From Euglena gracilis (Eukaryota): 64,000 nt of DNA. The position numbers and the translations under genes are program-made. The notes beneath the pieces are model-generated. The model saw only the letters and a list, made by a program, of their open reading frames with translations. It did not search any database and was not told the DNA's origin. The stretch spans positions 29,459,411 to 29,523,410 of the forward strand of contig CP154954.1 of the NCBI GenBank assembly GCA_039621445.1, given 5' to 3'. This document shows, piece by piece, positions 638 through 52,004 of the stretch. The first letter of the stretch is position 1; the number at the start of each line of letters is the position of its first letter.

Positions 638-779
638 CGGGCAAGGTCCTTCTGTGTAAGCTGGAACACCGCCTGGTTTTGCTGCACGGTGCCCTGGAAC
701 AGCGCGACCTGCATGAAGCGCTCCGTCCCCTCCACCTTCCCCAGAAGACGGCTCAGCGTGTTGGTGGGCAGGTGGACCA
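638..779 (-). CDS. PPWD1: PPWD1 exon 12 (gene continues beyond the left edge; cyclophilin domain not in window)
   Basis: cacag|TG ... CG|gtgtgc; VVHLPTNTLSRLLGKVEGTERFMQVALFQG resembles PPWD1 [29 protein letters not shown]; phase matches exon 11. Confidence 0.92.
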
Positions 780-1295: not shown

Positions 1296-1373
1296 CTTTG
1301 ATGCCCAACAGAGTGGCATAGATGAGGAAGTGCCCAGATTCATCAAAGGCCGTGTTGTATGGCCAGCAGGCTC
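1296..1373 (-). CDS. PPWD1: PPWD1 exon 11
   Basis: cacag|GA ... AAA G|gtgtgg; NTAFDESGHFLIYATLLGIK matches conserved FDETGHFVLYGTMLGIK. Confidence 0.93.
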
Positions 1374-2364
1374 CTGTGCAGCACGCCACAGGCACGGGGA
1401 GGCGCGCACTTCCCAAATGGCACACTCGAAAACATGCTGATGAAGGAAGGGTTTGCTTCAAGAAAAAGCTTACGATGAGAGCGCAAAGTACGAAATGTCA
1501 GGTCACGAGGCGTGCTTGTTCCAACCCAGCTCACTTGCCGGGGTCACAGTGGCCCAAAAGGCCAGGGGCCAACTTCCGAGAGGGACAAAATCGAGCCAAC
1601 GAGTGCTGGTATCCCAATGGGAGGATACACCTTGGGGCCAGAGATTCACTTAGACCCCGGGGGGGTTTTTTCTCAGCACATCCCGTCGGCCGTTGGTCAT
1701 CCCTTGGGCCCGAGGGCGGTCCTCAATGGGCGGTCCTTCAGGAAGAAGAAAAAAATCCGTGTCCCACATGGACCGCCCTGGACCTCCCACACACCACCCA
1801 GAGGGTTTCCGGGATTCCCGATCAGCCCTGAATCTGCTGAGCATTCAAAGAAGTCTTGTGATCTTTCGAAAGCGCACTTATACACGCAGGTCCGGTCTGC
1901 GAGGCTGTTTGAGGACCTTGCTTTTTGGATTTTTCCATTGACCGACTGATGACCTTTTTGGGACAGGGGGTACATTGCTCTTCCGGATTCAAACTGCACT
2001 GCTCACTTAATCCCGCATAACAGCAGCCCATGCTTTCAAATTCATTTATGTGTTGCATATCCCCAAATATGTATAATATACATTCAAATATGCTTACTGG
2101 GCCACGTGCATTTCCCATATTTGGTATTTCAGCACGTGGACTCAATTGCACCCCCCATCATGCTGGAGAAGGAGTAGCATGCTGCAACCCTGATTTGCCA
2201 ACAATGGCAATGCTGTTTGGCCGCTCTGGATCACAACAGAAGGAAGAGAGGAACGGTGTAATCACATGGTGGCATCCACAGATATGTGTGGCCCCCGTTG
2301 GGTCCCTGCCCCAATCACCTTTGGACACACAGGGGGGGGGGGCACAGAATGAGCGGGGGGGCAC

Positions 2365-2452
2365 CGGACGCCATGGCCACCTCCAACTCCTTCTCCACTG
2401 CCAGCCGGCGGCCGAAGTCGATGGGCTCCAAGGCATAGGGCCCCTCCCGGTC
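2365..2452 (-). CDS. PPWD1: PPWD1 exon 10
   Basis: cgcag|GAC ... TCC G|gtgccc; LEPIDFGRRLAVEKELE matches MEFGRRMAVERELE. Confidence 0.92.
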
Positions 2453-2492
2453 CTGCGACGACGAGAGAGCAGGCAGCTGGTCGGGGCGGAGG

Positions 2493-2772
2493 CACCGGTT
2501 TGTTTTATGATGCGGGGGGAGGGCCAACCACCCACCCACCACCCCCTGGGGACAGGGGTCCAGGGGGGGGGGGGGCTTGGGGGTACCCATTTTGGGGGGT
2601 CAATTTTGGTACAAAAAAAATTTGACGCTTCGCGCCGAAGACAGAGGAAAACCCCGCCTCCAGCGGGGGACCCACTGGGCCGAACCCCCCCCCCCCTGGG
2701 GGGTTTGGCCAGGACCCACCCAACCCCCCCCGGTTCATGAAACTGACAATTTGTATTATAAAAAAATCCCTG
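2493..2772. mobile_element. MITE with imperfect TIRs and perfect 8-bp TSD (hAT-like)
   Basis: GGCGGAGG at 2485-2492 and 2773-2780; ends CACCGGTTTGTTTTATGAT / ATTATAAAAAAATCCCTG. Confidence 0.7.
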
Positions 2773-3079
2773 GGCGGAGGAAATGGGGGGTGAGACACAA
2801 ATGCATCAATGGCAGCAAAGCTGTGAGGTGGTTAGGCGCCCTCAAAATGCAATGCGCTGCTGGAAAGAAATGTTGGCTACACCCATCCCTCCCCCCCCCC
2901 CACCTTGGAGGGTGGGCCAGCTGACGACTGGGCTGGACCACACCCGGAAAGAAAAACCAACCCCAACTTGAAGGGAGTTTGAAACCAGAAGCAGAACCCC
3001 CAAACCCTCGGAAAAATTCTTGAAAAAGCGGTCAATAACGGGTAAAATTTGGCGAACAACAAATTTAAAGGCGGTATTG

Positions 3080-3970
3080 GAAAAAAAATTCCGGAAACGG
3101 GGCCGGGGTCATGGTGATAATCTGCGGTTTTTACGGTCTACCCAGAGAGGGGGGCCGGGGGAGGGAGGGGTTGGACCCCCCCTTTTCCCCAGGGGTAAGC
3201 TTCGCTCTTACTCTAAAAAGATAAGAGCTCAGCGACCCCAAAAAACATCATATTAAAAAAAAAAAAAGTTTCGGTTTTTTTACCCGAAAATGACCTAAAA
3301 TCCATAGGATTCGGGCCCAAAACGAGGCGCTGGCGGGTCGAAAAACGCTAATATTCCGCTCAAAAACATTTTTTCCAGGTCCGGGAGACCAAAAAACATG
3401 ATTTTGGGCCAACAAATTTTTTTCGATTTTTTGGGATTTTTTTCGACTTCTTTTTCTGAAAACGGCTGAGTCTGACAGTGGAAAAAGTGACAAAATGTCC
3501 CAAATTGGCCGAAAAACGGCCGTATCTCGGGGGAGGCGGGGAGTTGCGAGGAAATCAAGATACCGGTAGATGGGGCATTCCAAGGGCTTCAAATTAGGTC
3601 GCCGGACATTTCCTTTGATTTTGCATCATTTCCGAGATATTTTGAAAGTATCAATTTTTGGGCCCGAAATAGCAGAGTCCAAAGGCGGGGGGCTCATCCA
3701 GGGGGGCGGGCCAATCCTATCCAGTTTGGACCCCTTCGCGGCTGAATAACTCAGGCCTGGCGGGGAGTTAGGGGTCAAATGGCGGTGATTCGGAAACTAG
3801 AAATCCAGTCGCTCGCGACTGAAAAAAAAATTACGGGAACGGGGCTGGGGTCATGGTGATAATCCGCGGTTTTCACGGTCTACCCGGGGGGGGGAGAGGA
3901 TGGGGTTGGACCCCCCTTTTCCCCAGGGGTAAGCTTCGCTCTTACTCTAAAGAGATAAGAGCTCAGCGTT
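3080..3970. repeat. High-copy interspersed repeat family (core GGTAAGCTTCGCTCTTACTCTAAAGAGATAAGAGCTCAGCG)
   Basis: Core or its reverse complement recurs near 3195, 3928, 19190, 20950, 30685, 40225 and 42105, with shared flanking modules. Confidence 0.8.
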
Positions 3971-4452
3971 ACTTCAAAGAAATGCAATTTTTGACCATTT
4001 CTTCCAAAAAATTTTGGCGCAACTTTGTTTCGGTCCAGCCCGGATTCGCCGGGGCCCCAACTTTATTTCGGCTGGGGGGGGGGGGGGGCGCAGCCCAACA
4101 GCGAGCTGTTGGCTGGGGAAAAAAGTGTTGGGTGGCCAAAACCTCTCTTGGGGGGAGGGGTCTGTTGCGGCTTGGTTCCAAAATAGATTTGTGCAACAAA
4201 TCATTACGAGTTCCCACCAGTAATCATACAACCACAATAACGGGCCGTTTTGCAAAAATTTGTGGGAAACGCCGGTGAGCCACCATTTCTGCGACGCGCT
4301 GGAAACCGAGGACAGCCCTTCCCGGCAAACAGGCTGCCGCCGAGGCCAGCGGCCATCCCCCAAGCACTGTCAGCCGCCTCCAGGCGTCACCCCACCCAGA
4401 GCACATCCCGGGCTCCCCTTGGGGCCGAGCCCCGCCCCGCCGGTCGGCACAC

Positions 4453-4608
4453 CTTCTGCAGCTCCGTGTGGGCGGCGATGGACTCGTTGTAGGCCCGGTA
4501 CCGGCGGCCGGTGAGGAAGCGGTACACCCGCAGCTGGCGGTCCTTGCCCCACATGGCGAACCACTGGCCGTCCCGGCTGAAGTCCAGGCTGTATGGCACC
4601 GTCCGCTC
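4453..4608 (-). CDS. PPWD1: PPWD1 exon 9
   Basis: ggcag|GAG ... AAG|gtgtgc; SLDFSRDGQWFAMWGKDRQLRVYRFLTGRRYRAYNES is a WD40 repeat matching PPWD1. Confidence 0.95.
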
Positions 4609-4975
4609 CTGCCAGGCAGGTGTGGGGGCTTCGGCGATGGCTGATGCAATGCGTTGCGGGGTGTTGCTTTGTTTGGGACGCGGGGTTGGCACCAAACCCA
4701 CCCAGAGGCAATTTTGGCTATAAAAAAAAAACTGGCACGTCTGGGGGATGGTTGGGGTTGGGGTCAGGCTTCTTTTTACCAACCCCGGGGGAGGGGGAGA
4801 GGGGTGCCTGCCCATAGCACCACAGGGGGGTCGGTTCTGGCCCGGTGCCCGCCGACCAAGCAGATTTTCCCTTGAAAATGGGCATTTTGGCGCCTTCGGC
4901 GGGGGGGGGGGGCATAGGACGACCCACCTGGGGGTCGAAATAAATGCCCTCCCATTTAGCACCCTCCTCCCCCGG

Positions 4976-6392
4976 GGGCAAGCACCTCCAGACACATGGG
5001 ATTTTGGTGGTGTTGTCGGGATTTGTCGGGATTTGTCGGGATTTGTCGGGATTTCAACAACGGAGGTGGGGTCCCGCCCACACAAATAAGGGGGCATCAG
5101 AGCAAAGCAACAAAGGGCACAAAAAGACGTTGGATCCACGAAGCCTTGCCCATGAATCGGGTTTCAACCAGTGATTTCAAATCCTTTGTTCAGGTAAATG
5201 AATGCTAAGGCTTGCAGAGTATCAGCACTCATGTTCAGACGGTCAGATGTTAAGATATGGCCCATTTTCGAAAAAGTTCGCTCAGCTTGAGTTGCAGATC
5301 GTGGGGAGAGCAAATACACAATGGCCACTGGTGTGAGGGAGAGGTGGACTAAAAAAATGCATTTTTATTGCACCTTGTCAAAGAACCTGGGGAAAAAAAT
5401 AAAGAATCAAAACGTGCAAAGATAAAATAGCAACCGGTCTGGGAAAGAAACATTCCACACTTTCATAAAAAAAATCTCCAACTTTGACATGGGAATGTTG
5501 CATGCTGCAAAAGCTTTGACAACATCTTTACAGAACTCTTGTTGTCGCAGCCCTTTAGGAAAAAAAATATCCATCTTTCCAGAGACCATCGGCCTTTTTG
5601 GGGTTGGTTCTTCCTTTGTCTCACTGGATTCACGCTTCAATGGGCTTTGGACCTTTTGACAAAAAAAAGTGGAAAAAAAAAGCAAAATGACAAAAAATGC
5701 AACCTGTATGATGATTGGATTTGGTGTGGAGACATTTGGTGTTGTACTGGCAACCAAAGCTGCACGCTCCACCCTCTTCTTCACCATTTGAGCATGACTG
5801 CTCTCGACCCATCTCTTCTCACACCCCTTGAATATCCAACGCAATGACTTGATTGTATTCATTGAAGCAACCAGAGACTTTGCACACAAATTGTAATAAA
5901 CCTTGCCTGGGGGGGAGGAATTGAGACACTGTTGGACAGAAGTGCACACCTGGAATACTGTGTCCATGTGGATCGCTCTCAGCAACATCTGTCCAGCCTT
6001 CAGAATGGCAATATGCCACCCACTCAGCAACACTTCGACGTGATGCATGAGTGCTCATGAGAAGACAAAGAGTCTTGGAAGAAAGCCAGACAGAGAGAGA
6101 GAGAGAGAGAGAGGAAATTGCACGTTTCCAATCAAATAAAACCATCCCGCTCACTTGGGAACACTGGCCATTCCTTTTACCCTTTGGTGGCTTTGCAAAA
6201 AAAAATTTCCGGTGTTGTCGGGATTTGTCGGGATTTGTCGGGATTTGTCGGGATTTGTCGAGATTTGTCGGGATTTGTCGGGATTTGTCGGAACCCCACC
6301 TCCAGAAGGCCAAAAAAGTGTTGTTGGGATTTGTCGGGATTTGTCGGGATTTGTCGGGTTTTGTCAGGATTTGTCGCTGGAGGTGCTTGCCC
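4976..6392. mobile_element. Internally deleted DNA transposon with subterminal decamer arrays
   Basis: Perfect 16-bp TIR GGGCAAGCACCTCCAG / CTGGAGGTGCTTGCCC; (GGATTTGTCG)n at about 5013-5054 and 6214-6375. Confidence 0.8.
5164..6048 (-). pseudogene. hAT-superfamily transposase remnant (CGGBP1-like N-terminus plus C-terminal dimerisation domain; core deleted)
   Basis: About 5347-5164 reads VAIVYLLSPRSATQAERTFSKMGHILTSDRLNMSADTLQALAFIYLN (hAT dimerisation pattern); ORF 5407-6048 has FCKDVVKAFAACNIPMSKLE and a decayed Zn finger; 51-nt GT-AG intron at 5653-5703. Confidence 0.8.
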
Positions 6393-6513
6393 AGGGGGGA
6401 TGAGCACTTCCTTAAAAAGAAGCCTGGTTGGGTCGGGAATCAGACCTGACCCCCCACCAGGTTGCCAACCTACAAGGAAAAAAAGTCTCCAAATACGCAG
6501 GCTGCCCAACCTC

Positions 6514-6545
<32 letters not shown>

Positions 6546-7156
6546 AGCAAGTTTCCATGCTTCGATTATATCATCAAATAAAATCAAGTAAAAAGCCATT
6601 GTTTTGCACAAAAGTGCTTCGTGCTCCTTTCTTAGGTGGCCAACCTCCACTTAACACGTAGTTGTCGTGTTCTTTTGAGCAACTGGTGTCTTTTTATTAT
6701 TGAAAATACAAATAAATGGCGACAAAACCCACATAATGAGGACTTTGAAAGTTAAAGTGCTCCAGAGCAGATGTCGCCACAACATTAAGCGCACCTTTCC
6801 CCCAAGTCAACACCGGAAAATGGTGAGGATCCACACACAGAGGGCCGGCGTGCAACCAGCAGTTCAAAAACCTGGACCCATAAACTCGGATTGCGCAAAA
6901 GACACAAAAAAAATACATGCTATTAAAAAAAATACATGGCACCAAATTTTTTTTGGATTGAAACTACTATCTGGCAGGGGTGTAAAACTGTCCACATCTT
7001 GAAATTACATTGCCCAAAGAGTAAAAATCTTTTGTTAGGTGCATCAAGGAAAGTATGTGATCAGTTGGATCCTGACATTGATTAGCCGTGAACTCTTCAG
7101 GAAAAAGAACCCTCAGAACAGCAAACTCTGATGACAATTTCGCTCAACACACTCAC

Positions 7157-7297
7157 CTTTCCGAAGTCATACAAGTCAGTGTCCAGCTTGCTTGAAAAGC
7201 GAAGCCCTTTGGCATCGAAGTGGTACGTGTCAGAGCTCCAGTATTCCACCATACCATCCTGGGACGCGCTCACCACGGTGTGGTAGACATGGTTGAA
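7157..7297 (-). CDS. PPWD1: PPWD1 exon 8
   Basis: ctcag|TTC ... AAG|gtgagt; FNHVYHTVVSASQDGMVEYWS...KLDTDLYDFGK matches [20 protein letters not shown]...KTDTDLYEFAK. Confidence 0.96.
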
Positions 7298-8077
7298 CTG
7301 AGAAAAAGGATGGGCATCAAAGCCACCAAAGTATGCCCAATTTCTCTGAGAACAAGAGCAGTCAACATTGACAAGAGCGGGTGTCCCGTTTTGGACGCTC
7401 TTTGGCGGTGCCAAAAAAAAAGTCAAAATGAACCTATGGTGGTGGTCTTTGTCATGATTTTTTTCATTTCAAACAAACCCCAGAAATTGACCATTACAAT
7501 ACCCCATCGTTTGCTTGTTTGTGAAATTTGGCTACCCCCGAAAGTGCTCCCCCAAAGGGTGTAGGATAGGCACACTGGGAAAAAGTATGGGAAAAAATAT
7601 TATGGGAAAATTGGGCAGTTTCCCGTGATTTTGTCTGGACTGTATGAACATATACATACATAACATATACATATATACGCATACAGGGCGGGGGTGAACT
7701 TTCACCCCCCCCCCACCTACCTGCACCCCCACCTTAGTTGCTCTAAAGCTTCTTGTCTGTTTATGGCTGGCGCTACCTTCACTTCTGGCCCAGTTTGCCG
7801 TGTGGTGAGTGGCAAGGGATCCCTTTCACCGGTGTTCTTTTGTTGCTCCACGTGGCCCCACCTACCCCATGCCTACTCCCGCCCCCCCCCCCCCCGGAAA
7901 CTGCCACCTGACAGGTTGGCCGGAACTGGGAACCCTGACGACTTTCTATCATCAAAGGTTGGCCAGTAACGGGGACCCTGGCAGTTTCCAGGGCGGGTCC
8001 CCAACAGGTTCTTGGGCATGGCAATTTCCCGGGGGGTAACCCTGACCCTAACCCTAACCACACAAATTCACCTTCGA

Positions 8078-8343
8078 CATACAGACATACATACATACAT
8101 GCATACATACATACATACATACATACATACATACATACATACATACATACATACATACATACATACATACATACATACATACATACATACATACATACAT
8201 ACATACATACATACATACATACATACATACATACATACATACATACATACATACATACATACATACATACATACATACATACATACATACATACATACAT
8301 ACATACATACATACATACATACATACATACATACATACATACA

Positions 8344-8371
<28 letters not shown>
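8078..8371. repeat. (TACA)n microsatellite
   Basis: Near-perfect tetranucleotide run of about 290 bp, preceded by CCCTAACCCTAA. Confidence 0.98.
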
Positions 8372-8374
<3 letters not shown>

Positions 8375-8526
8375 TATATATACCCCCCTCCCCCCTGGGG
8401 AGGGGGTCCAAGACTAAAAAAAAAACCCTTATACATACGTACAGACATATATACATGTATCAATGGGAAGTTTAATACTCCCAGGGGTATTACACTTCCC
8501 ACCCCCCCAGAGTTCCAGTGACACAC

Positions 8527-8578
8527 CTGGATGACCCGCACTGGTGTACTGTGGAGGTTCACATCCTGTAGGGGAGTT
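8527..8578 (-). CDS. PPWD1: PPWD1 exon 7
   Basis: (G)TPLQDVNLHSTPVRVIQ|gtgtgt aligns with PLHIFDKLHTSPLTQIR; 5' boundary set by the non-conventional intron. Confidence 0.85.
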
Positions 8579-9508
<930 letters not shown>

Positions 9509-9562
9509 CCAGCCCCATCATGCGGATCAAAGATGGTCATCGTGGGTTCTGTCCGATGGCAC
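9509..9562 (-). CDS. PPWD1: PPWD1 exon 6
   Basis: ccgaag|G TGC; (V)CHRTEPTMTIFDPHDGAG fills the slot of ASEKSTGKIFIYDGRG; phase matches exon 5. Confidence 0.8.
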
Positions 9563-10884
9563 CTTCGGAGGACGAGGGAATCAATTCTAACCCAGCTGTG
9601 CAGTTGGTGGAAAATACAGTTGGTTGTACAGTTGTACAGTTGGTGGAAAATATAAAAGAGATTGGTCAAAATTAAGTGCATATGGGTGTACTTTGGAATT
9701 TGCGGAGGGATCTGCGTTGCCTCTTTCCCCCTTGGCTAAAAACCGGAAAAGATGCATTAGAACCTGGGGGTGCTTGCTTTGCCACAGTATGGGCAAGAAC
9801 CCAAGGGGGGGGTGCTGAGGCAAACCCCTGATTGAAAAAATACAGCACTTCACGCGTAAAAAAAAAGAAGAAAAAGACGTCATTTTTGGGGTACACTGCT
9901 CAATGTGAAGGCATTAGGGCACAAAAATCAACAGCATCTCACCAAATCAAGCGTCAGAAAATTTCCCCAAGATCCTCACTTTCGACTTTTCTCATAGAAC
10001 TACAAGAGAGAAAGAGCTTCCTGGGAAAATTACCCTTAAAAAACATGGCTGGCAAACAGGGTGGTGGTGCTTAACCAAGGCAAGTGCTCAGACAGGGGGG
10101 GGGTTCGACCCCCCACCTGCCATCGAAGCCTGGGCACAGGCCCCGTACCAGGGGACATAAGGCATTTTGGGTACCGGAGGGGGGGGGGGCTGAATGGGAA
10201 CGATTGCCGACGGGAAAACTTCTGTTGGGAAAAATATTGGACAAATCCTTAAAATGGCAGGAAAAATTCTGGACGCCCACTTAAAACGACTGGGTGAAAA
10301 ATTACGACGAAAAAATCTCGTGAACGCATTTTTCAGGGAAATGCATCAAAATCCCCAGGATTACCAAATCCAACCTTGAAAAACTGGTGAAATCCCAAAC
10401 GTCAAATGGTGAAACAAAGCAAAAAAACAAAGTTTTGGGCAAAAAAAGTTGTCGAAAATGCAAACAAAAAATTTTGGTGCCAAGCGGCGGAAGGAAAAAT
10501 ATGACCTTTGGGGGGGTCCCGGATATCCCCTCGGGGTCGGTTTGGACCCTTCCTGGCAGGTGGGGGGGGTACAGACCCCCTGTCCAGGAGGGGGGGGGGG
10601 GGCGGAGGGGGACACCCCCACCGAACCCCGTACGCCCTCCTTATATCGAACCCTGTGACATGGCGTGTCCATGATACACCTCCTGTGTCAACCGCAGTTT
10701 CCCCACAATTTAATTTTTGCATTATTGCATTATCCATTTGAATTCTTTTTTTGACCTGATGTGCAAACATCCGAATTGTGGGAACGAAACACCCACCGCC
10801 GAGTTATTGCGAAACAGTTCTGTGCTGTCCTTGTCATGGATAAGCCGTGTCAAGGACGGGGGGGGGGGGGTAAGGAAAGCATAC

Positions 10885-10972
10885 ACAGCGAGCCGCGGCT
10901 TCGGATGCAAAGAAGGGCAGATCAACTCAATGGCTCCAGGGACGAACCCCAGTTTGATCATATTGATCATAT
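10885..10972 (-). CDS. PPWD1: PPWD1 exon 5
   Basis: tccag|AT ... GT|gtatgc; DMINMIKLGFVPG matches DMINMLKLGYFPG. Confidence 0.93.
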
Positions 10973-12572
10973 CTGGAGCAAAGATAATCACAATGATTCA
11001 GAATAAAGAAACATGCCTAAATAAGAATATAGAATAATAAAATAAGAATAAAATAAATAAAATAATAAATAAAATATAGTAGGAATTAAAAAAAGAATAG
11101 AATAAAGAGACATAGCAGCATGCGCACTTCTGAACACAAAAATTACGATGAATATCCAACTCCTGAGAAACACATCACTTCAGATTGTTCTTTGCGTCTT
11201 TCAGGATTTCGGGGATTGTTGGACAGAAAAGTGGGGGTGCAACCAAAGGGGTTTGGTGCATTTCTCCCTGATAAAAAGTGAATGGCAACTGGGTTGCTGA
11301 AGACCACCAACTCTTGTCCAGTGCAGAAAAATCTCAGCGGCCTTCAGCAACTTCTTTTGGGGCAAGAGGCTTGTATGAAGTTCAGGAGATACTGGATTGG
11401 GGGTTACTGGGTTATGGGAATGCAAAAAAAAAAATGAACAAAACCTGCTGGGTGGAATGCTTGGATCCCCCAAACTTGGATCCCAAAAGCAAAGAAATCG
11501 GGGGACCAGGAAATTCCCCCCATTTACCATCCCCCTCCTCTCGATTACACCCACCACGGAGGAGGTCCAGCCAAAAAATGCAACCCAGGGGGGGGTGCAA
11601 TCTAGGGGGGGTCCAATGAGGGGTCAATGAAGGGAGAGACCCGTGCACCACATGCAAGGCAACAAAAGACGAAGGAACCCTTACATTGGCTGCATTCTTG
11701 CAGAAGGCACATTTGTCACACGCAAAAAAAAACGCAAAACCCTCTCATCTTGCTGTGGTAAAAAAAAAATCAGCTTGGTCTGATGCATGGCGTTTGAGAA
11801 TCAAAAAAGTGCAGCCTGGGGGGGTGCAATTTAGAGGGGGGGGGATGGTAAGGGCACAATGCGCAAAGGGTGCTCAGTGCCGAAATAAAATGTGCCACAC
11901 CCTTGAGCCTCTGAAAATGACGTCGAAAAACGCACCTCTGAAAAGCCAGTTATACTGAACCGACTTCAAGAGGGCCGAAGCAATGTTTCAAAAATGCGCA
12001 CGCTGTGCACTTAAGCGGGAGGGAGGGGATTCTCTGTGTGGGGATCAAACCTTAATGCCATTCCACACAAACATTACAATCCTTGCAATGCCCACCACAG
12101 AGGTAAGTGTCCAGCCGGCTTTAGAGACCATAGATTCACTTAGTGACCCCATGGTTACCAGGGGGGGATTGGTGGGTGGATGGGTTTTGGCATCCACCCA
12201 CCTTTTCGTTTTTTTACAGCCAGGTGGAAAGATCATCCACCCACTTTTTCCCCTCAAAATCCACTGACCCCACCTCGAGTGGGGGTTGCCTGCTGGGAGA
12301 GACGCAGTTTTGCAATTTCACCTGGAAAACTCCACACTGGACCTGATTTTCCCCTGTGACTAAACTTTTCATTAGCTTGATGCCATTCCTTGATATTTTT
12401 TTGGCCAACAAATTCACCCAGAGCCAAAGCACCCCCCAAAAAGCAAAAGCACAATGGGAGTCCTCACATTCACTTTCACCCAGCGGTGGGGTTATGCAGC
12501 AATCCCTTCAAATTTTATGTGGACTACGGAGATGAACGCGGGGGCAATGATGGGCCGGATCAATACACACAC

Positions 12573-12671
12573 CAAAGTTGACGACATCAAAAACTTTCAC
12601 AGATTGATCTTCAGAAGCTGTGCATACGAGCTGTCCATCCCACCTCGACATGGCCATCCCAGACACCATGC
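12573..12671 (-). CDS. PPWD1: PPWD1 exon 4
   Basis: gccag|GC ... TTT G|gtgtgt; DGQLVCTASEDQSVKVFDVVNFD; preceded by 58-nt GT-AG intron 12672-12729. Confidence 0.95.
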
Positions 12672-12729
12672 CTGGCCAAAAAAAAAAAGAAGGGAAATAT
12701 TTTTTTAAACAAGAGGTTGCAGCACAAAC

Positions 12730-12766
12730 CTAAATGGGGGCGGAAATGCTTCACAAAAATGATGTC
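12730..12766 (-). CDS. PPWD1: PPWD1 exon 3
   Basis: DIIFVKHFRPHL(G)|gtttgt matches GIEFVKHFRSHLG. Confidence 0.93.
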
Positions 12767-12855
12767 AACGGCAGGCTTCTTTCCGGAGGCCATTTTGACT
12801 TTGGGTGAATGGATCTCCATCCCCCAAAAGGGATTGATTCAAAGGAAGCCCGATC
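12767..12855 (-). other. Non-conventional intron 2 of PPWD1 (89 nt)
   Basis: No GT/AG; T|GAT-CGGGCTTC ... GAAGCCTG-CCGTT|G with CGG at +4..+6 pairing CTG at -8..-6 and Y|R junctions; removal restores KKLPV-DIIFVKHF. Confidence 0.9.
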
Positions 12856-13025
12856 AACAGGAAGTTTCTTCCAGAACTTCAAATGCCCGTCAACAGAAAG
12901 AGTGACAATGAAATCTGTCTTTGGTGTCACCAGCACCATGCACAGACAATCTGTGTGCATATATGACCGCTCATACATAGCAGCATTGGGTAAACCATCC
13001 AAATGCAAGCGATCCGCATCAAGCT
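12856..13025 (-). CDS. PPWD1: PPWD1 exon 2
   Basis: ttgcag|AG; LDGLPNAAMYERSYMH...KTDFIVTLSVDGHLKFWKK is the hallmark PPWD1 N-terminus. Confidence 0.97.
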
Positions 13026-13064
13026 CTGCAAACAGGGGGAGAGCAGTGATATCATCTGTATTGT

Positions 13065-13210
13065 AAACTGTGTCCTGGACACCTGCTCGGGCGTGAGTTC
13101 GAAGCCTAGAACACCGGCTCGGGCGTGAGTCTGAGCCTAGAACAGCGGCTCAGGCGTCAGCCTGAGCCGGCTTTGGACTCACGCCGGAGCTGGTGTCTGG
13201 GACACAGTTT
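13065..13210. mobile_element. Small foldback MITE with internal tandem units
   Basis: AAACTGTGTCCTGGACACC / GGTGTCTGGGACACAGTTT; related sequence near 14160 and 38890. Confidence 0.6.
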
Positions 13211-13592
13211 TTGAAACTGTGCATTTGGGGCTCTTGACTTATGCCCAAGCCGGTGTACAGGACACACGGGATTGTCGATTTTTTTTGGCTGCAGGCTTTT
13301 CTAAATGTACCCCGGACAGCTCTCTGCCATTTGCACCAACGCGATCAAATTCTGGCTGGTTCAGAGGCTACCGCCGCCCCTTGAGAAGGTCCAGTAGCAC
13401 TCATAGCATTCTTTGGGGACAAGTTTGTCACTAGTTGCCCTAGTATTGTTCAAGCGAAAAAAAAGCAAACAGGTTGCACTGTTAGCTGCGAGGGATTTTC
13501 AAAAGGTTTGTGAACTGCGTGGGGCAACTTTGACACGTTGGACGACTGGCTATTGGCATTTGCTCTTTGGACAATGAAGATCCCATGCAGAC

Positions 13593-13939
13593 TTTCATTT
13601 AATTCGCCGCAACGAAGTTTGCCGCGGCGCAAAAAAAAATTATCCCATGGCGCACGCGGCACACAATCGAATTTTTGCCGCGGCACACCCGCGGCGCACC
13701 TGAAACGTTGCCGCGGCGCACCAACAATGCACCCGCGGCGCACCAATGACGTTCCCGCGGCACATGCTTTTTTGTCGCGGCACGGACAGGGGATAACGAG
13801 GACCGCTATGCCGCGGCGCTGCCGCGGTGCACGCGGCGTACAGAAAGCAATCTTCCACGGCACACGCGGTCACAAAATTTCCGGTGCCGCGGCGTACGTG
13901 GTGCAGAAAAAAAACTTTTCCGCGGCGCACTAAATGAAA
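13593..13939. mobile_element. MITE rich in CCGCGGCGCA motifs
   Basis: Imperfect TIR TTTCATTTAATTCGCCGC / GCGGCGCACTAAATGAAA. Confidence 0.55.
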
Positions 13940-16257
13940 ATCTGATCCCATGCCTTTTGATCACGGTGATCCGAAATTTGGATGGCAGCCGCCGTCCAAA
14001 GGAAGGAAATTTGCACCAGTGCCAAAATCCAGGATCGCCCCTGGCTCCCCTCAACGTTGACAACAAATCTCAACGCTTTGGCCGCTCTATTTAGGCACAC
14101 TGTTTGGAATTTGTTCATATTGTTTGGAATTGAGTCCAGGCCACTGAACTCGATGCGCACACCGGTTCGGGCGTGAGTCCAGAGCCCATATACATGGTTC
14201 CAAAGCATTTTGAGATTTCTGTTGTCAACTGAGGTTAAACAGTATCAAATCAGTTGTCTGATAATTCCCCCCCCCCCGACGTGTTCGGCCAAAATCAGGA
14301 AATGGTGACCTGTCTGATTCACCCCCCAAAACGCTTTTTTTCGCCGCTCCAGCCCTTTTTGAGGCTTCTTTTGGCACCAAGTGCTCAAAATCCAGGGGAA
14401 ACGGGGCAGACCCAAGTGAACATTTGAACACTGGGGTTGTGAATTTCAAATTGGGCAGGGAAAAAACAACCCCTTGGAGGAGAAATTACAACCTCTGAGG
14501 AAAAAAAATGTCCTTTTTTTGCACCCTGGACCCAAATTTTGTTGATAGTCTTTGTTTTCGGCTTCTAGGTGCGACCAAGGTGACCCGAAATGAAAACCGG
14601 ACAAAAGTTGTCCCCCTGGTTTTCGGCTGCTTGGGGGGGGGGGTTATCAGTCAGTTTATGGTATGCAGTCACACCTCTTAGGCTGACTGCACCATTGGCC
14701 CCAAAGATGGCATACACCATTTTTTCTATTTTTTTTGCATTCTGTTTACTCATCTTTTTATCCTTGCGGTCCATTTGCGGTCAAAAATAATGGTCCAAGT
14801 GGACAAGAACAATTGGAAAAAAAACAGGCAGGAACAATGGAAATGGGTAGAAATGGATAGGGCAATGATGACACCCAATGGACACAAACGATGGCCTCAG
14901 AAAGACACAGTTAATGACCACAGCGCGACACAAAAAATGGAGAAATATTTGTGGTGCAAACACATTCATTTCGTGAGTTGCAGGATGAATCCCCCCCTGG
15001 TTCCTGAAACACAGCTCGGGCCTGTTTCTGAACCAAAAAAATGGTGTGAAATGCCAAAGAATTGAAAAGGAGGTCACCTGACAATTTTGGATGCAAAATC
15101 CTAACCAAGGTGGAGTTGTTTTTCTCGCCATTTTTCAGGGTACCAGCCAGGTCTAAATGCCAGCTGGCCAAACCCTTGGCCCTGGATTGGTGATAGCTGG
15201 ATCTGGGGGGGCTGGGCCAGGATCAGGCCAGAACGGAAGACCTGGTGGGGGGGGTCGACCCCCCCCCACCCGGGAGGTGGGGGGTGGGGGGGGTCGACCC
15301 CCCCACCACAGCATTTTCACCAATTTTGGCCAACGGGGATGTTGGCCGGGGGAAATTTTTGAAACTTTTTTTTGAAAAACGAACCCAAAATACATGATTT
15401 TTTGAAGCCTGTTCAATCAGCATTTTGTTGCCTGAAAAGGGGCGAGATGGCGACAAGTTTTTTTTCTTCTTCAAAAATGGCGCGCCGCTGAAACTTCAAA
15501 TCCAACCCCATTCCTCACAAAATAATAATGGTTGTTTTGGAGCAGTTTTTTTTTTGCTGCCCAAAAGCGACAAAAAAGCCTGACCACCCTTGCCACCCAT
15601 ACTTTTTTTGTCCTCTTGAATTTATTATTCATGCCAAAATGGAGCCATGGGGACTTGGTCATCTAGTTGGGCACCCTCCCCCCTCCTCCCTATGCAATTC
15701 TTGGGCACCTTTTGGCCAAATATTTGCCAAAAATGCCAAAAAAAATTCGGCGCAAAGCGCCGGAAGGAAAATTTTGATCCTTTTGGGGGTCTCGGGTACC
15801 CCCCCCTCCCCCGGGGTCGGTCCAGACCCCTAAGCAGATGGGGGAAATCTGGACCGCCCCTTTGGTCCAGGAGAGCACCCCGATGGGACCCCGAAGGGCA
15901 ATCCTGGGCTGCAGGCTACTCAAGCACCTAAATCCCTCCCGGTGCATTTATTTGGGCACAAGCGGAAATTGGTTCAGTGTAACGTGGCTCTTCTGGGGGG
16001 TGCGCGCTTTTTTTTTTGGACTTCACTTTCGGATGCTCAGGGGTGTGGCATATTATATGGACACTGTGCACCCTTGGACACTGCGAATTTAAATGGGGGG
16101 ATTTCCATTATTGGAAATTTCAGGGTGCCTGTGCGGCGGACCGGTCTGCTGACAGCTTCCCGGGGAGGGGAGGGGAGGGGAGGGGCAGCACGCCATAAAT
16201 TAACCCTCGCCCCCGCCCAGCCCAGCCCCAGGGTATCAAGTGAGCGTTGGTTTTGTA

Positions 16258-16764
16258 CAGGGGGAAAGGAGGGGAAACGTCTAACCACCCTCCCCCCCCT
16301 AGGGGGGGGGTCCAGACCACCCCCCCCCCAGTGTCTGGAAAAACTAAAAAAACGTCACTTTTGATGACCAAAAAAATGACCTTAAAACTTTTTCCTCAAA
16401 AAATGGCCATTTCGCAAGGAAAAAGGTCAATTTTTGCTTTTTAAAAAAAGAAAACATGTTTTTTGTGTTTTTTTTTGGAACATTTGTTCTTTGTTGAAAA
16501 ACAAAAAAACGTCAACCCTGGCTCAATTCCACATGGTGTGCCAAGGGGGAGTGATTGAAGCTGCTTCCTGCCTTTCTGCTAAGTGTTTAAAGTGAAAACA
16601 CTGGCTACCATTCTTTTTACAAGAGACAAAAATTTCGCAAAATGCATCTGAATTTCGCAAAATGCATCATTGCCAGCCTCAATTGGACGAAAAATGTCGC
16701 AACTGTCTCGGGGGTAGGCAGTGCAGTTGTGATTTTCTGGGGACCCCCCCCCTCCCCCCCCCTG
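16258..16764. mobile_element. MITE with CAGGGGG/CCCCCTG ends flanked by TA
   Basis: TGTA|CAGGGGG ... CCCCCTG|TACA. Confidence 0.5.
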
Positions 16765-16920
16765 TACAGCTTCCAACCCCCCCCTCGGACCCCCCCTCCC
16801 CCCCCCTGTGCCTTGTCTCCTTTACCAACACCCGTGCCCTCCTTATGTTGAACCCTGCCAGAGATGCTATGATTTGAGGTGAAAAAAAATGCTGAATCCA
16901 AAAGCAGGGAGGAAACAAAC

Positions 16921-16984
16921 TTTTTCTTCGCTTCAAATCAGGTTCGCTGACGGAAGACGATGCGGCATCCACGCCTTCATCCAT
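16921..16984 (-). CDS. PPWD1: PPWD1 exon 1 (start codon)
   Basis: ATG..MDEGVDAASSSVSEPDLKRRK A|gtttgt; phase 1 joins exon 2 to give KRRKKLDADRLHLDGLP, matching KKRKVLEFERVYLDNLP. Confidence 0.85.
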
Positions 16985-17005
16985 AGTTGATGCTGAAAAG
17001 AAGAT
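16985..17005 (-). promoter_or_regulatory. Putative spliced-leader trans-splice acceptor of PPWD1
   Basis: Minus strand atcttcttttcag|catcaactATG: pyrimidine tract plus AG 8 nt before ATG. Confidence 0.55.
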
Positions 17006-17900
17006 GTGTATGTTGCGGGATTGATCAACAAACACTCAAAACGAGGACCAAGCGATCAACTGCAATTGACTGGGGTCTTGGTTTGATTTACGGTGCTTCC
17101 ACTTAATTAAGAATTAGAGCCAATGTGGGAATCACCGTTTCAAAAAAAAATTGACAAATCGTGGTTGGCTTTTGTTTTTTTAATTTATTTTTAAAACCAA
17201 AAAATGCCTAATCCTTAAATAGGACTAAGAACCACAATCGGCAACTTTTTGGATGGTGCTTTTTGTTGTTGTATTTTTTTCTGTTTCATCATCATCATCA
17301 TCATCATCATCATGACCCTGGCCCCGTTCCCTGCTTTTTTTTTCTTCAGGATTGACCCCCCCCCGAGAATTTGGGCTTGCTTCTTGTGAAGGCAAAACAG
17401 CGCAAAGCACATTGGATGCACCGGGACTCAAGCCCGAGTTTTCCGACGCAGCGGCCAGCACACATTCTTTGCCTTCATGCCAACAGCAGGACCCGAAAGT
17501 TGCCTCAGGTCTCGCTGAAGTCGTTAGAAATCATCAACAAAACTGGGTCTTCAGCATGAGTGACGGACATTGTATCAACCACCACAAGAATCGCCAGCTG
17601 AAGGCCAGCCCTTTGGCCGAAACCAACCAGCTTTTTGAATAGTTGAATAACTCTTTGCAATGAGACACCTCTACGACCCCCACCCCTCCAAAATACTCAC
17701 GGCCATCCCCCCCAGGACCCTGTCTTGGGAGGGTCCTGGGCCAGGGTTAGGGCAGAACGGGAAGGCCTGGTGGGTCGACCCCCCCAGCTGGGAGGGGGGG
17801 GGGGCCACCCACCACAGCATTTTCACCAATTTTGGCCAACGGGGATGTTGGCCGGGGAAAATTTTTGAAACTTTTTTTTGAAAAACGAACCAAAAATACA

Positions 17901-22396: not shown

Positions 22397-22793
22397 CAGG
22401 GTTCGATATAAGGACAGGTGGGGGGGGGGGTCCGGACCCCCACCCCTGCGGGCAAGGAGGGGGGGGGGGGGGGGAGGGACACCCCCCACCTAAACAGTGG
22501 CGCGGTCCGGGTGACCGAAAAAAATTGACCCCCCAAAACGACCAAAAGTGCCATTTTGGGCACTCTTGGGGCAAAAATTTGCAAAAAAATGCAAAAAATT
22601 TTCGGCGCAAAGCGCCGGAGGAAAAAATTGACCCTTTTTGGGGGGTCCCGGGTACCCCCCCCCAGGGTCGGTCCGGACCCCCCTGGCAGGTGGGGGGGGG
22701 GGGGGACCGGACCCCCCTGCGGGCCAGGAGGGGGGGGGGGTGGGGGGACACCCCCCACCTAAACCATGTACGCCCTCCTTATATCAAACCCTG
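22397..22793. mobile_element. CAGGG-type MITE
   Basis: TIR CAGGGTTCGATATAAGG / CCTTATATCAAACCCTG in a G run; same right end near 10640-10656 and 16840-16857. Confidence 0.75.
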
Positions 22794-23705: not shown

Positions 23706-23747
23706 GGCAGGTGGGAACTATAAGACCCCCGGGGGGGGTCCTAAACT

Positions 23748-36377: not shown

Positions 36378-36382
<5 letters not shown>

Positions 36383-45639: not shown

Positions 45640-46389
45640 CTGCGAGGGGGCGGGCAAACAGGGCAGTCCAGAAATGAAGCAAAAAGACCAGGGTGAGCTC
45701 CGGGCGCTGGAAATTCTTTGGGAATGCACCAAGACGTCCCAATATTGGGGGGGGGGGCACAGGCAATTTGAAAATTATTGGCCTTTTCCTTGCACAATAA
45801 TCCGGGAAAAAAACTGATTTTCTAGGCTTTGCCATGGCAGCTGGATTGGGGATCTGAATTGGTTTGAGTTGAATTGGTTTGAGGGACACCTGTGGAGGTC
45901 ATCTAGCACCTATGGTCATCCAGAGTCCCAGGCCCAATCGTGCCCAGTCACCCCCAGCACGCCAACAGAGATCCCAACCATCCCAACTTTGAGGGAGGTT
46001 GTTTGGCCATTTGTTGTTTGGCCACATTCTGGCGTTCTTTGCCCACTTTTTGCCCACTTTTAGCCCACTTTGGGCTGCTTCAACTTCTGGCTGTCACGAC
46101 ACCCTAACCCTAACGCTGGCCGCTTTTTTGCTGGGGGTCCACGACTAAAAAAAACCCCTGGTTCGGATACTTTTTGCTGGTTTTGACAATTCTTGGCCAA
46201 TTTCGCCAACGTTTGGTTGTTTGCTTTTGACTGCTTTTAGCAGCTTTCTGAAGCCTTTTGAGGACACTCTTGCCAACTCTTTTTTGCTCAGTGGCCAACA
46301 ATGGCCCCAAAGTGGCCAAAAGAAGCTAAAAAATGGCCTGAAAATCGCCCAGTCACAGAATGCAACATACGGGGGCCGTCAGTCAAAGC

Positions 46390-46832
46390 CAGGCTTTTGC
46401 TTAAGGGCCCGGGGGGGGGGGGGTGCTGGTTAGCCAATCGGCTAGACACTGGAAAAAGTGGACTAGCTAGACCCCCCCTCCCCCCACTAGGGGGGGGGGG
46501 GTCCGGGGGTCCCCTGGACTGGGAATTTTTTTTTCCTCCAGCGCACAGCGCCGGAGGAAAAATGAGGTTTTTAACAGGTTTTTGGCTGATTTTGTTCCAA
46601 AAATTCCCCAAAATGGCCAAAATGGGCATTTTTGGCCATTTTTGGGGGGTCCCAAAAAAATTTTTGGCGCTTCGCGCCGGTCACTGGAAAATTTTTTTCC
46701 ACTAGCTAGCCCTGCTAGCAGACCCCCTCCGGGGGGGATCTGCTAGAAAACCCACTAGCCAAATTTGGACTAGCTGCAGTCCAGCCCCCCCGGGGGGGGG
46801 GGGGGTACTGCAATCCCTTAAGCAAAAGCCTG
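46390..46832. mobile_element. CAGGCTT-type MITE with perfect 8-bp TSD (hAT-like)
   Basis: 18-bp TIR CAGGCTTTTGCTTAAGGG / CCCTTAAGCAAAAGCCTG; GTCAAAGC at 46382-46389 and 46833-46840. Confidence 0.92.
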
Positions 46833-46866
46833 GTCAAAGCCACTCCTGCCCAGTCATTTCATAGGT

Positions 46867-52000: not shown

Positions 52001-52004
52001 GAAG

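Follow-up and report, generated by a model that had tools for sequence, protein, structure and literature searches.

The window, by which we mean the whole 64-kb stretch of DNA analyzed here, contains a gene for PPWD1 on the minus strand, intron 12 of which extends past the window edge. The first intron of the gene (16920-13026) is a GT-AG intron of 3,895 nt, and the second is the 89-nt intron that is the subject of this study. RNA and DNA reads were mapped over positions 9410-17100, and PPWD1 introns 7 to 11 were placed by homology. The features around the second intron were the following:

12856..13025, minus strand: PPWD1 exon 2 (RNA contig piece 12854-13025)
12767..12855, minus strand: PPWD1 intron 2, nonconventional, 89 nt, with coordinates set according to the published code (GAU CGG ... 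CUG CCGUU, then G after the junction)
12852-12772, minus strand: core of intron 2, the putative element proper, 81 nt, with CGG and CTG at its ends
12860-12853, minus strand: upstream 8-mer CTGTTGAT, the putative left copy of a target duplication (5 exon nt and the first 3 intron nt)
12771-12764, minus strand: downstream 8-mer CCGTTGAC, the putative right copy (the last 5 intron nt and the first 3 exon nt)
12730..12766, minus strand: PPWD1 exon 3, 37 nt
12729-12672, minus strand: GT-AG intron 3 of PPWD1, 58 nt (RNA joint from 12670 to 12729, CT..AC on the plus strand)

No further nonconventional introns were found in the other genes of the window, for which long open frames were inspected by eye and searched with Pfam.

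Removal of intron 2 from the PPWD1 transcript

The initial annotation had postulated an 89-nt intron with borders other than GT-AG in PPWD1, and had named the mapping of RNA junctions as its check. The expected removal was found in runs X1, X12, and X20, in which RNA contigs and raw reads of the minus-strand gene joined position 12764 directly to position 12854, thereby skipping 89 nt with the ends TC..GA. One contig of X1 (depth 67.9), one of X12 (depth 49.8), and 6 raw reads of X20 with 6 distinct start places contained the joint. Run X20 is RNA on record, and X1 and X12 were taken as RNA runs since they cover exons only. None of the contigs in the DNA run X15 contained the joint, and a 2009-nt contig from this run spans the site unbroken. 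Furthermore, the euglenid relatives P0001-P0003 share the sequence KKLP[VIK]DIIFVKHF, which aligns without gaps over the intron 2 junction and contains no protein indel there.

A 5-nt ambiguity at the joint ("both = 5") makes six registers compatible with the RNA, from 12765-12853 through 12770-12858 and including 12855-12767, and none of the 6 corresponds to a GT-AG intron. The published splicing code for euglenid nonconventional introns is 5'-N3 CDG -/- CH'G N5-6 followed by R after the junction, with the 3-nt and 5-nt spacers demonstrated by knock-ins (Nomura et al. 2025, PMC12501133). In an earlier model, CAG was placed at +4..+6 and CTG at -8..-6 (Milanowski et al. 2014, 2016). In intron 2, CGG at 12852-12850 is matched with CTG at 12774-12772 through the pairs C-G, G.U, and G-C, the spacers are GAT (3 nt) on the 5' side and CCGTT (5 nt) on the 3' side, and exon 3 begins with the purine G at 12766. 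The initial annotation had likened this intron to a CAG...CTG transposon; its 5' triplet is CGG, and the CGG-CTG variant was spliced when knocked in (Nomura et al. 2025, PMC12501133).

The 89-nt stretch is present in the DNA, absent from the mature RNA, and bordered by neither GT-AG nor GC-AG, as are nonconventional introns by definition. The PPWD1 gene of this Euglena-type nuclear genome carries here a true nonconventional intron of the euglenid kind. We found no difference from the known euglenid nonconventional introns, with which it shares the non-GT-AG borders, the terminal stem, the 3-nt and 5-nt spacers, the purine, and the CGG-CTG variant. It is a new example of this class, in a gene that is not discussed in the published accounts cited here.

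The 81-nt core begins with CGGGCTTCCTTT and ends with AAAGAAGCCTG. Its terminal stem consists of 8 contiguous pairs (7 Watson-Crick pairs and 1 G.U), one mismatch, and 3 further pairs, and was recovered in the MFE and centroid structures of all 3 folds. Counted without gaps and with G.U included, 10 of 12 end positions are paired, and as DNA complementarity holds for 7 of the first 8 end bases, so that the core has inverted ends. The fold energy was unexceptional (z = -0.96, with 28 of 200 shuffles equally stable; z from -0.96 to -1.48 over folds). The core is located on an unbroken DNA contig at a single-copy depth of 46.4. No second copy of the core or of the other nonconventional intron of the gene, intron 6, was detected in the window, where the searches returned chance words (the best of 12 nt) and a microsatellite only. 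The core does therefore not belong to a young, high-copy family.

The two flanking 8-mers

It had been suggested that splicing removes an element and exactly 8 nt, and this agrees with the 89 nt missing from the RNA (81 + 8). The match of 6/8 that had been noted between the 8 nt before and after the core was confirmed on the minus strand, with CTGTTGAT (12860-12853) and CCGTTGAC (12771-12764) being identical at positions 1, 3, 4, 5, 6, and 7. When the length k of the compared flanks was varied from 4 to 12, 6 identities were obtained at k = 8 and 0 to 4 at the other values. The chance probability of a 6/8 match is 0.0042 at flat composition.

A simpler view is that intron 2 is an ordinary nonconventional intron without a transposon past, in which the likeness of the 8-mers reflects junction preferences and chance, and the likeness of the stems the needs of splicing. 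The junction preferences in print, a pyrimidine followed by a purine across the junction and then A, cover positions 5 to 8 of the 8-mers on both sides, and with these preferences the chance probability rises to about 0.017, using per-position match probabilities that are our own estimates. The nine GT-AG introns of PPWD1 gave 1, 3, 2, 2, 4, 5, 4, 4, and 5 identities out of 8 in the same register, and the value of 5/8 reached by 2 of the 9 has the same kind of cause. Moreover, the 3 + 5 spacing is demanded by splicing, so that a transposon is unnecessary to explain it, and the single-copy state of the core fits this view as well. However, the matches at positions 1, 3, and 4 carry no known preference. 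The 8-mer match is real, yet taken alone it is weak support for a duplication and only suggestive.

We noted that the identity at offset 89 continues past the 8-mer to 14/19, into the 3' arm of the stem, which would not be expected from a clean 8-bp duplication and counts against a transposon origin. The longer, imperfect repeat is better accommodated by the repair of a double-strand break, in which a staggered break is filled in, leaving short direct repeats of variable length with filler DNA captured between them; such variability suits repair better than a transposase. This is also the published reading of the recently gained gapC intron 4 in Euglena agilis strain ACOI 323, the eight-nucleotide direct repeats of which were attributed to break repair rather than to a duplicated target (Milanowski et al. 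2016, PMC4770533). The repeats in gapC are intact and the intron is missing in other strains, from which it follows that the gain was recent (PMC4770533). Both gapC intron 4 (PMC4770533) and intron 2 are nonconventional introns with 8-nt flanks, intact in the former and matching at 6/8 in the latter. It had been stated that a MITE origin was suggested before in general terms. This is indeed in print, but the statement is too modest, as 'TSD-like' repeats at nonconventional junctions are mentioned in the portions of the literature consulted, besides the one published 8-nt repeat.

Elements with CAG...CTG ends in the window

All statistics on elements presented here are derived from a single 64-kb window with two nonconventional introns. 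The features compared, of which the elements are given without strand, were:

13580..13952 (element 13588-13944), no strand: element A with its duplications, 357 bp, ends CAGACTTTCATTTA, in GT-AG intron 1 of PPWD1
46382..46840 (element 46390-46832), no strand: element B with its duplications, 443 bp, perfect 18-nt inverted ends CAGGCTTTTGCTTAAGGG
22397..22793, no strand: element C, 397 bp, ends CAGGGTTCGATATAAGGA (17/18), inside a G run
4765..6426, no strand: element G, 1662 bp, with 14-nt inverted ends that are free of mismatches and begin with CAGGCTTCTTT, within PPWD1 intron 8 (GT-AG)
8579..9508, minus strand: nonconventional intron 6 of PPWD1, 930 nt (AAU CAG ... UUG GCCUG, then A after the junction), containing a (GAT)67 array

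Elements with CAG...CTG inverted ends and 8-bp duplications do exist in the window, namely A and B, both of which have flanks identical at 8/8. Element A, with 11 of 12 complementary end bases, is bordered on both sides by a perfect copy of ATCCCATG, and element B by a perfect copy of GTCAAAGC. For both elements, all 8 flank positions were identical at k = 8, whereas the remaining lengths between 4 and 12 gave no more than 5 identities. The word depth of A was high, possibly due to internal 22-bp repeats, and a DNA contig enters the element for 54 nt at single-copy depth, for which reason we make no claim of a high copy number for A.

To place these flanks against background, all inverted-repeat pairs in the window with CAG...CTG ends (10 nt, at least 9 complementary) were collected, and 3 of the 212 pairs had 8/8 flanks versus 0.003 expected; none had so when the flanks of the same 212 pairs were shifted outward by 8 nt. 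In a refined control, in which tandem repeats were masked and flanks that continue the inverted repeat were filtered out, 8/8 flanks were observed for 3 of 183 CAG pairs; for the 63 other termini together the figure was 11 out of 29,777. In each of these 11 pairs the 8-mer contains at least 5 identical letters, mostly runs of A or G, whereas the 8-mers of A and B are complex. There were 23 pairs with the broader termini C[AGT]G...C[ACT]G and 8/8 flanks, 21 of which have 2 to 8 complementary bases among the 12 at their ends; the outliers are elements A (11/12) and B (12/12).

A further candidate, element D (36381-36674), was set aside since its inverted repeat continues into the flanks, so that its end does not lie at CAG. 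As a point against a transposon origin, elements F, H, and E, with 6/8 flanks, had been chosen by that score, and the displaced control also contained 3 pairs with at least 6/8. Searches for partners of the orphan ends at 61484, 10655, 16857, 14361, 13292, and 15582 returned noise only.

Family C has further right ends at 10638-10655 and 16840-16857. All three right ends agree through CTG and diverge immediately beyond it, and in the DNA run 25 loose ends diverge behind 10655. The word CAGGNTTNNNNNTAAGG, common to B, C, and G, occurs 7 times exactly and 9 times with at most 1 mismatch, versus 1.5 expected. Break repair does not predict inverted ends that belong to a fixed sequence family, a constant repeat length of 8 at the independent elements A and B, or multi-copy families that stop exactly at CTG, and we regard it as a quite improbable source of intron 2.

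The flanks of element G, GTTGGGGT and GTTGGGTC, are identical at 6/8 (7/8 with one G dropped) in G-rich, repeat-like surroundings. Intron 6 was recognized from an RNA loose end at 9507 (X1, X12, and 16 reads of X20), which continues from 8576 downward at a place that is unique in the window. It has TTG in place of the CHG of the code, and the MFE structure of the whole intron leaves its ends unpaired. Its flanking 8-mers, GCTGGAAT and GCCTGAAC, match at 5/8, and the register k = 9 (6/9) is about equal to k = 8.

Introns 2 and 6 have four ends in total, of which two are identical to the first 9 to 11 terminal bases of element G, and the remaining two have 9 to 10 matches to the first 12 bases of G. 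The intron 2 core has its terminal 11 nt in common with G, and 9 to 11 nt with intron 6. It is by these terminal ~9-12 nt only that intron 2 is linked to G and intron 6. With at most 1 mismatch, CAGGCTTCTYTT was found at 5 sites in the window versus 0.75 +/- 0.90 expected, a number that none of 100 shuffles reached. Two of the five sites are the ends of G, and the others are located at the 5' end of intron 6, at the 3' end of intron 2, and at position 14361. The continuous terminal stems of introns 2 and 6 contain 4 non-Watson-Crick pairs, each of which is G.U on the transcribed strand, as would be expected for the residue of a once perfect inverted repeat that has decayed under selection at the RNA level.

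These observations bear on the view of intron 2 as an ordinary nonconventional intron, which leaves unexplained both the perfect 8-bp duplications at the non-exonic elements A and B and the end identity of 9 to 11 nt with G, since published work describes the stem bases beyond CAGG as unconserved between non-homologous nonconventional introns. We consider an origin without a transposon unlikely.

The hAT transposons are characterized by an 8-bp target duplication and by short inverted ends that begin with CAG, and 8-bp duplications are made by other superfamilies too. Elements A and B resemble hAT elements in the 8-bp duplication, seen as 8/8 at k = 8 only, and in the CAG ends, and no hAT transposase was present in the frames of the window. 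What we take to be the five-base hAT terminal motif fits family C, and fits A, B, G, and the intron ends at 4 of 5 positions, which we treat as a lead only. A Pfam scan of 10 long frames of the window yielded no transposase and a single match, to RVT_1 (reverse transcriptase). A maize Ds element, which is of hAT type and non-autonomous, was reportedly described by Giroux and colleagues in 1994 as acting as an intron.

The reverse-transcriptase frame could also be taken to support the opposite direction of descent, in which the nonconventional introns came first, and elements A, B, C, and G arose when excised circular intron RNAs were copied back into DNA at new places. Excision of euglenid nonconventional introns as circles, by a machinery thought to be non-spliceosomal, is described in those parts of the published accounts that we consulted. 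However, the excised RNA would consist of the core and 8 nt, not of the core between two 8-mers. Furthermore, perfect target duplications of fixed length next to inverted ends are the hallmark of cut-and-paste DNA transposition, and we judge descent from copied intron RNAs to be very improbable.

Origin of intron 2 and of nonconventional splicing

In the pre-mRNA, the ends of intron 2 pair through CGGGCUUC and GAAGCCUG, and the nonconventional machinery cuts 3 nt upstream and 5 nt downstream of the stem, ahead of a purine. These cuts take out the 81-nt core and 8 nt with the reading frame kept; the RNA and the published code provide the demonstration of these removal steps. The core itself probably derives from a small non-coding DNA transposon with CAGG...CCTG ends that generated an 8-bp target duplication at insertion, in which case both flanking 8-mers would be the decayed duplication. 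Since the cut offsets sum to the length of the duplication, excision at the RNA level would restore the message as it was before the insertion, and an insertion into an exon would be silent in either orientation. Elements A, B, and G conform to the splicing code whichever strand is read, and removal according to the code would leave one 8-mer in each case. Intron 6 would represent a second, older copy from the same transposon group as intron 2, and element G in intron 8 a larger relative of this group.

We consider it likely, short of proof, that intron 2 originated from a transposon plus one copy of its duplication. The main weight for this origin lies with the other elements of the window, which support it more strongly than the 6/8 match does. 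The reading was put forward in the initial annotation, and what stands of it is the mode of removal, the spacing of 3 and 5 nt, the sister elements, and the shared end bases; the 5' CGG, the run-on of the repeat to 14/19, and the single-copy core speak against it, as do the 6/8 flanks of element G in G-rich sequence, the TTG, the k = 9 register, and the unpaired ends of intron 6, and the absence of a transposase from the 10 frames scanned. A metagenome scan with exon 2 gave no close euglenid genomic locus among 80 of 126 relatives; within these 80, the best metagenome relative reached 64% over the exon, and locus L070 45.6% to P0001.

In the portion of the source consulted, introners (Micromonas, Aureococcus, and dinoflagellates) and the MITE-derived noncanonical introns of Fritillaria borealis are described as short non-coding elements with inverted ends and duplications that become introns upon insertion into genes (PMC11282704). 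The duplication is there said to aid exact removal, as we propose for intron 2 (PMC11282704). The modes of removal differ, in that introners are excised by the spliceosome at splice sites provided by the element and the duplication (PMC11282704, as far as consulted), whereas for intron 2 end pairing and cuts at fixed distances are used, by machinery thought to be non-spliceosomal. Intron 2 has no GT/GC-AG removal sites and is in this respect not an introner.

Nonconventional introns account for 71.8% of all introns in Euglena agilis. The question of their origin dates from the 1990s, and in published accounts the origin is called unclear and the transposon theory untested; a paper from 2013 stated that transposable elements had yet to be identified in the genomes of euglenids. 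In those parts of the literature that were searched we found no statement of the link 3 + 5 = 8, of an assignment to hAT, or of duplication-bearing elements outside introns. Table S3 of PMC4770533 and the sliding-distance figure and datasets of PMC12501133 lay outside the search and may hold a repeat-length distribution.

A broader reading can be offered tentatively, and taken as a whole we think it somewhat more apt to fail than to hold. According to this reading, nonconventional splicing would be an RNA-level excision fitted to a single group of DNA transposons with CAGG...CCTG ends and 8-bp duplications. The inverted ends of the element would be the recognition stem, and the cuts would lie 3 and 5 nt outside it for the reason that their sum equals the length of the duplication, with the consequence that any exon insertion, in either orientation, would be removed from the message without a trace. 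The nonconventional introns, which number in the hundreds of thousands, would then be the exonic share of elements that are spread genome-wide, and the A, B, C, and G families the non-exonic share. The three G-type ends situated less than 8 kb apart at one gene would reflect local hopping.

The same window holds non-exonic elements that carry the terminal bases of the introns together with exact 8-bp duplications, and this is what the MITE hypothesis had lacked. The sum of 3 + 5 = 8 ties the length of the duplication to an experimentally defined splicing code, by which the idea of tamed transposons becomes directly testable. If true, this would mean that a eukaryote tolerates a massive invasion of its exons by transposons through a dedicated excision that is guided by the elements themselves, and that there is a second, non-spliceosomal route by which a transposon may become an intron.

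Splicing of PPWD1 introns 2 and 6

The gene for PPWD1, a peptidylprolyl isomerase domain and WD repeat protein, is located on the minus strand with its 5' two-thirds inside the window; exon 1 lies near positions 16921-16993 and the gene extends past position 637. A query with the translated exon 2 retrieved PPWD1 proteins, the top match being a eukprot record with the prefix GGOE (86% identity), which we take to be the Euglena longa transcriptome, followed by a JGI protein (84%) and a third record (67%), presumably from Rhabdomonas costata. By these matches, the organism belongs to the Euglena-type euglenids. Twelve exon pieces were placed by local tblastn with the GGOE protein, and two probable RNA contig sets (X1 and X12), raw RNA reads (X20) and a DNA run (X15) were mapped onto positions 9410-17100, where five RNA joints were identified:

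13025 to 16921, minus-strand gene, skips 3895 nt, GT-AG (CT..AC on the plus strand)
12764 to 12854, skips 89 nt, nonconventional (ends TC..GA)
12670 to 12729, minus-strand gene, skips 58 nt, GT-AG (CT..AC on the plus strand)
10972 to 12573, minus-strand gene, skips 1600 nt, GT-AG (CT..AC on the plus strand)
9560 to 10883, minus-strand gene, skips 1322 nt, GT-AG (CT..AC on the plus strand)

Introns 1, 3, 4 and 5 are GT-AG introns according to RNA and introns 7-11 according to homology, while introns 2 and 6 (2 of the 11 judgeable introns) are nonconventional.

The initial annotation had proposed an 89-nt non-GT-AG intron 2 with a paired core adjoined by 8-mers identical at 6/8, and a recheck of the sequence upheld the coordinates, the length, the two arms and the 6/8 identity; the core comprises 81 nt (12772-12852), with the 8-mers upstream at 12853-12860 and downstream at 12764-12771. 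The joint was found in one X1 contig (depth 67.9), one X12 contig (49.8) and six X20 reads with six distinct start places, and was absent from all X15 contigs, one of which (2009 nt, depth 46.4) spans the site without a break; the 89 nt are skipped in RNA and kept in DNA. Three euglenid proteins are gapless across the junction. Five letters fit on either side of the joint, so that six registers yield an identical mRNA.

From knock-ins in E. gracilis, Nomura et al. (2025; PMC12501133) derived the code 5'-N3 CDG -/- CH'G N5-6, with R after the junction; the required spacers are 3 nt (5') and 5 nt (3'), with 6 nt tolerated, and CGG-CTG introns were shown to be spliceable. One of the six registers, 12855-12767, reads GAT CGG ... 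CTG CCGTT with G after the junction and matches this code in full. The terminal stem of eight contiguous pairs (7 Watson-Crick, 1 G.U) was recovered in the MFE and centroid structures of all three folds; the fold energy of the whole stretch is unexceptional (z = -0.96; 28 of 200 shuffles fold equally well). In itself, intron 2 is a standard nonconventional intron, unremarkable within a class already known. Its core has no second copy within the window and is single copy in X15, which counts against a young origin.

At intron 6 (8579-9508, minus strand, 930 nt), the RNA match in X1, X12 and 16 X20 reads ends at 9507 and resumes with 30 letters that have a single place in the window, running downward from 8576. 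In the register of the code, the excised 930 nt begin with AAT CAG and end with TTG GCCTG, with A after the junction; the 3' triplet TTG departs from CHG. The terminal pairs are nine contiguous ones (6 Watson-Crick, 3 G.U), and the flanking 8-mers GCTGGAAT and GCCTGAAC are identical at 5/8 positions. In the MFE structure of the whole intron, the 5' arm pairs with an internal stretch rather than with the 3' end. This complementary stretch, GGAAGAGAGAAGC, at about 9120-9140 (minus strand), may be a remnant of the inner end of a composite element. The intron also contains a (GAT)67 microsatellite (9208-9407).

Further repeats were noted in the gene. Intron 7 contains an (ACAT)74 microsatellite (8077-8373). 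A 146-bp hairpin element (13065-13210; 42-nt arms, 86% complementary) lies 40 nt upstream of the intron 1 acceptor; its ends are not CAG/CTG, and related 31-mers occur at 13071, 13103, 13134 and 14151. X15 word depth was 4e3 to 1.6e5 at 10181-10694, 13522-14035, 15064-15834 and 16092-16862, as compared to about 46 in single-copy neighbours; these stretches are very high-copy G-/C-rich repeats in introns 1 and 4. RNA reads accumulate at 10590-10611 and 16744-16762.

Elements with CAG...CTG ends

A scan of the window for inverted repeats with a leading CAG and a closing CTG considered ends of 10 nt with at least 9 complementary bases and spans of 40-6000, and the 8 bases outside each end were compared. 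Among 212 pairs, the flanks were identical at 8/8 positions in three, against an expectation of 0.003, and at 6/8 in four, whereas flanks taken 8 nt further out gave none at 8, one at 7 and two at 6. With 4.6% of the window masked as tandem repeats, and with pairs removed whose flanks continue the inverted repeat, 8/8 flanks were found in 3 of 183 CAG pairs; for the remaining 63 termini the figure was 11 among 29,777, and all of these 11 had at least five identical letters per 8-mer, mostly runs of A or G. The three cases are:

13588-13944, element A, 357 bp, within GT-AG intron 1 of PPWD1, duplication ATCCCATG
46390-46832, element B, 443 bp, perfect 18-nt ends, duplication GTCAAAGC
22397-22793, element C, in a G run

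A search that started from the duplication gave 8/8 flanks in 23 of 549,369 C[AGT]G...C[ACT]G pairs; the end complementarity was 2-8/12 in 21 of these, the outliers being A and B at 11 and 12. Flank identity in A and B is 8 at a compared length of 8 and at most 5 at all other lengths from 4 to 12, with no match outside the 8 duplicated bases. The duplication of C is not judgeable because of the G run. Right ends of its family recur at two other places in the window (10655 and 16857); all three copies match up to CTG and diverge directly beyond, and in X15 there were 25 loose ends diverging behind 10655. From the duplications of A and B and the divergence of family C at CTG, it follows that mobile elements of this genome genuinely end in CAG...CTG and that these elements duplicate 8 bp.

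Two copies of another element, 36381-36674 and 24038-24263, have 27-nt perfect inverted repeats within a TA-rich microsatellite, and their flanks extend the inverted repeat, so that the true ends lie further out. A (CTATAT)40 microsatellite is located at 23746-23983. A hairpin cluster at 50184-51278 is made up of several nested copies of CAGAACACGGTTTTCT and of its complement; the flanks of one pair (50323-51199) are identical at 6/8.

hAT elements have CAG ends and make 8-bp duplications, which are also made by other superfamilies. No transposase was seen in the 10 window frames scanned, one of which matched a reverse transcriptase: this RVT_1 open frame (54944-59215, minus strand, 1424 aa, E 1.4e-12) looks like a retroelement, and its C-terminal part is similar, by eye, to the frames 49175-49974 and 51825-52439.

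Ends shared by elements and introns

The end motif CAGGCTTCTYTT occurs at five places with at most one mismatch, versus 0.75 +/- 0.90 expected, and none of 100 shuffles reached five. Two of these are intron ends (5' in intron 6, 3' in intron 2), one is an orphan at 14361, and the other two are the ends of a further element:

4765-6426, element G, 1662 bp, in GT-AG intron 8 of PPWD1, perfect 14-nt inverted ends

The flanks of G are identical at 6/8, or at 7/8 when a run of G is shortened by one, in G-rich surroundings. The remaining intron ends match the first 12 bases of G at 10/12 (intron 2, 5' end) and 9/12 (intron 6, 3' end). According to Milanowski et al. (2016; PMC4770533), conservation of the stem past CAG(G) is confined to groups of homologous introns; the common stretch of 9-11 nt is therefore better read as a sign of shared ancestry than as a requirement of splicing in general. 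All five motifs lie inside PPWD1 (4765-14372), in 10 kb of the 64-kb window, and this clustering could reflect local hopping, or such ends could have been kept only where the DNA is transcribed. Furthermore, CAGGNTTNNNNNTAAGG is common to B, C and G (7 exact matches; 9 with at most one mismatch versus 1.5 expected), which suggests that the three belong to a single larger group.

All four non-Watson-Crick pairs in the continuous terminal stems of introns 2 and 6 are G.U on the transcribed strand, the residue that a perfect DNA inverted repeat would leave when decaying under selection for an RNA stem. Elements A, B and G satisfy the splicing code in either orientation, and their removal according to this code would leave exactly one copy of the 8-mer.

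Origin of intron 2

Intron 2 is removed at the RNA level by cuts 3 and 5 nt outside the stem of its own ends. Its core probably descends from an old insertion of a CAGG...CCTG element, with the two 8-mers as the target duplication. Pairing of the ends and cutting 3 nt and 5 nt beyond the stem would then restore the original message, because 3 + 5 = 8.

Junction consensus combined with chance would also account for the 8-mers. With flat composition, 6/8 or better has P = 0.0042, but according to Milanowski et al. (2016; PMC4770533) both junctions favour a pyrimidine before and a purine after the cut, and the next exon favours A as its second base, preferences that coincide with positions 5-7 in both 8-mers; with our own rough estimates of the match probabilities, P rises to about 0.017 (introns 2 and 6 combined: 11/16, P about 0.003). 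In the same register, the nine GT-AG introns of PPWD1 gave 1, 3, 2, 2, 4, 5, 4, 4 and 5 of 8, reaching 5/8 because of the consensus at both junctions. It was also noted that the identity at offset 89 in intron 2 goes beyond the 8-mer (14/19, 12854-12872 versus 12765-12783, minus strand) and reaches the 3' stem arm, which the upstream exon thus resembles. A clean 8-bp duplication leaves that resemblance unexplained; no comparable extension was seen at intron 6. Taken alone, the decayed target-site duplication is therefore suggestive and no more. Consensus and chance leave A, B and the shared ends unexplained, and we consider them an unlikely source of the whole pattern.

For a gapC intron that E. 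agilis gained recently, published eight-nucleotide repeats have been read as traces of break repair (PMC4770533). Break repair predicts neither fixed ends nor a fixed length, and seems improbable here; that introns were copied back into DNA is more improbable still. The origin from a transposon with a target-site duplication, as proposed in the initial annotation, is partly supported: the observation on intron 2 is confirmed, and the interpretation is strengthened by the 8-bp duplications of A and B and the shared ends, evidence that the annotation did not contain.

The MITE hypothesis itself is already published (Milanowski et al. 2014), a review refers to "TSD-like" repeats and terms CAG/CTG TIRs (PMC11282704), and abundant junction repeats have been described as "slidable introns" (PMC12501133). 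For E. gracilis, the assembly paper puts DNA elements at 4.6% and unclassified repeats at 32.7%, and mentions neither MITEs nor hAT. In the literature searched, we found no statement that the spacer sum equals the duplication length, no non-exonic element with CAG...CTG ends and an 8-bp duplication, and no family relationship linking such elements to the termini of introns. Relevant repeat-length data may be contained in Table S3 of the 2016 study and in the sliding-distance data of the 2025 study. The value of these results lies not in intron 2 itself, but in a concrete, testable link to transposons.
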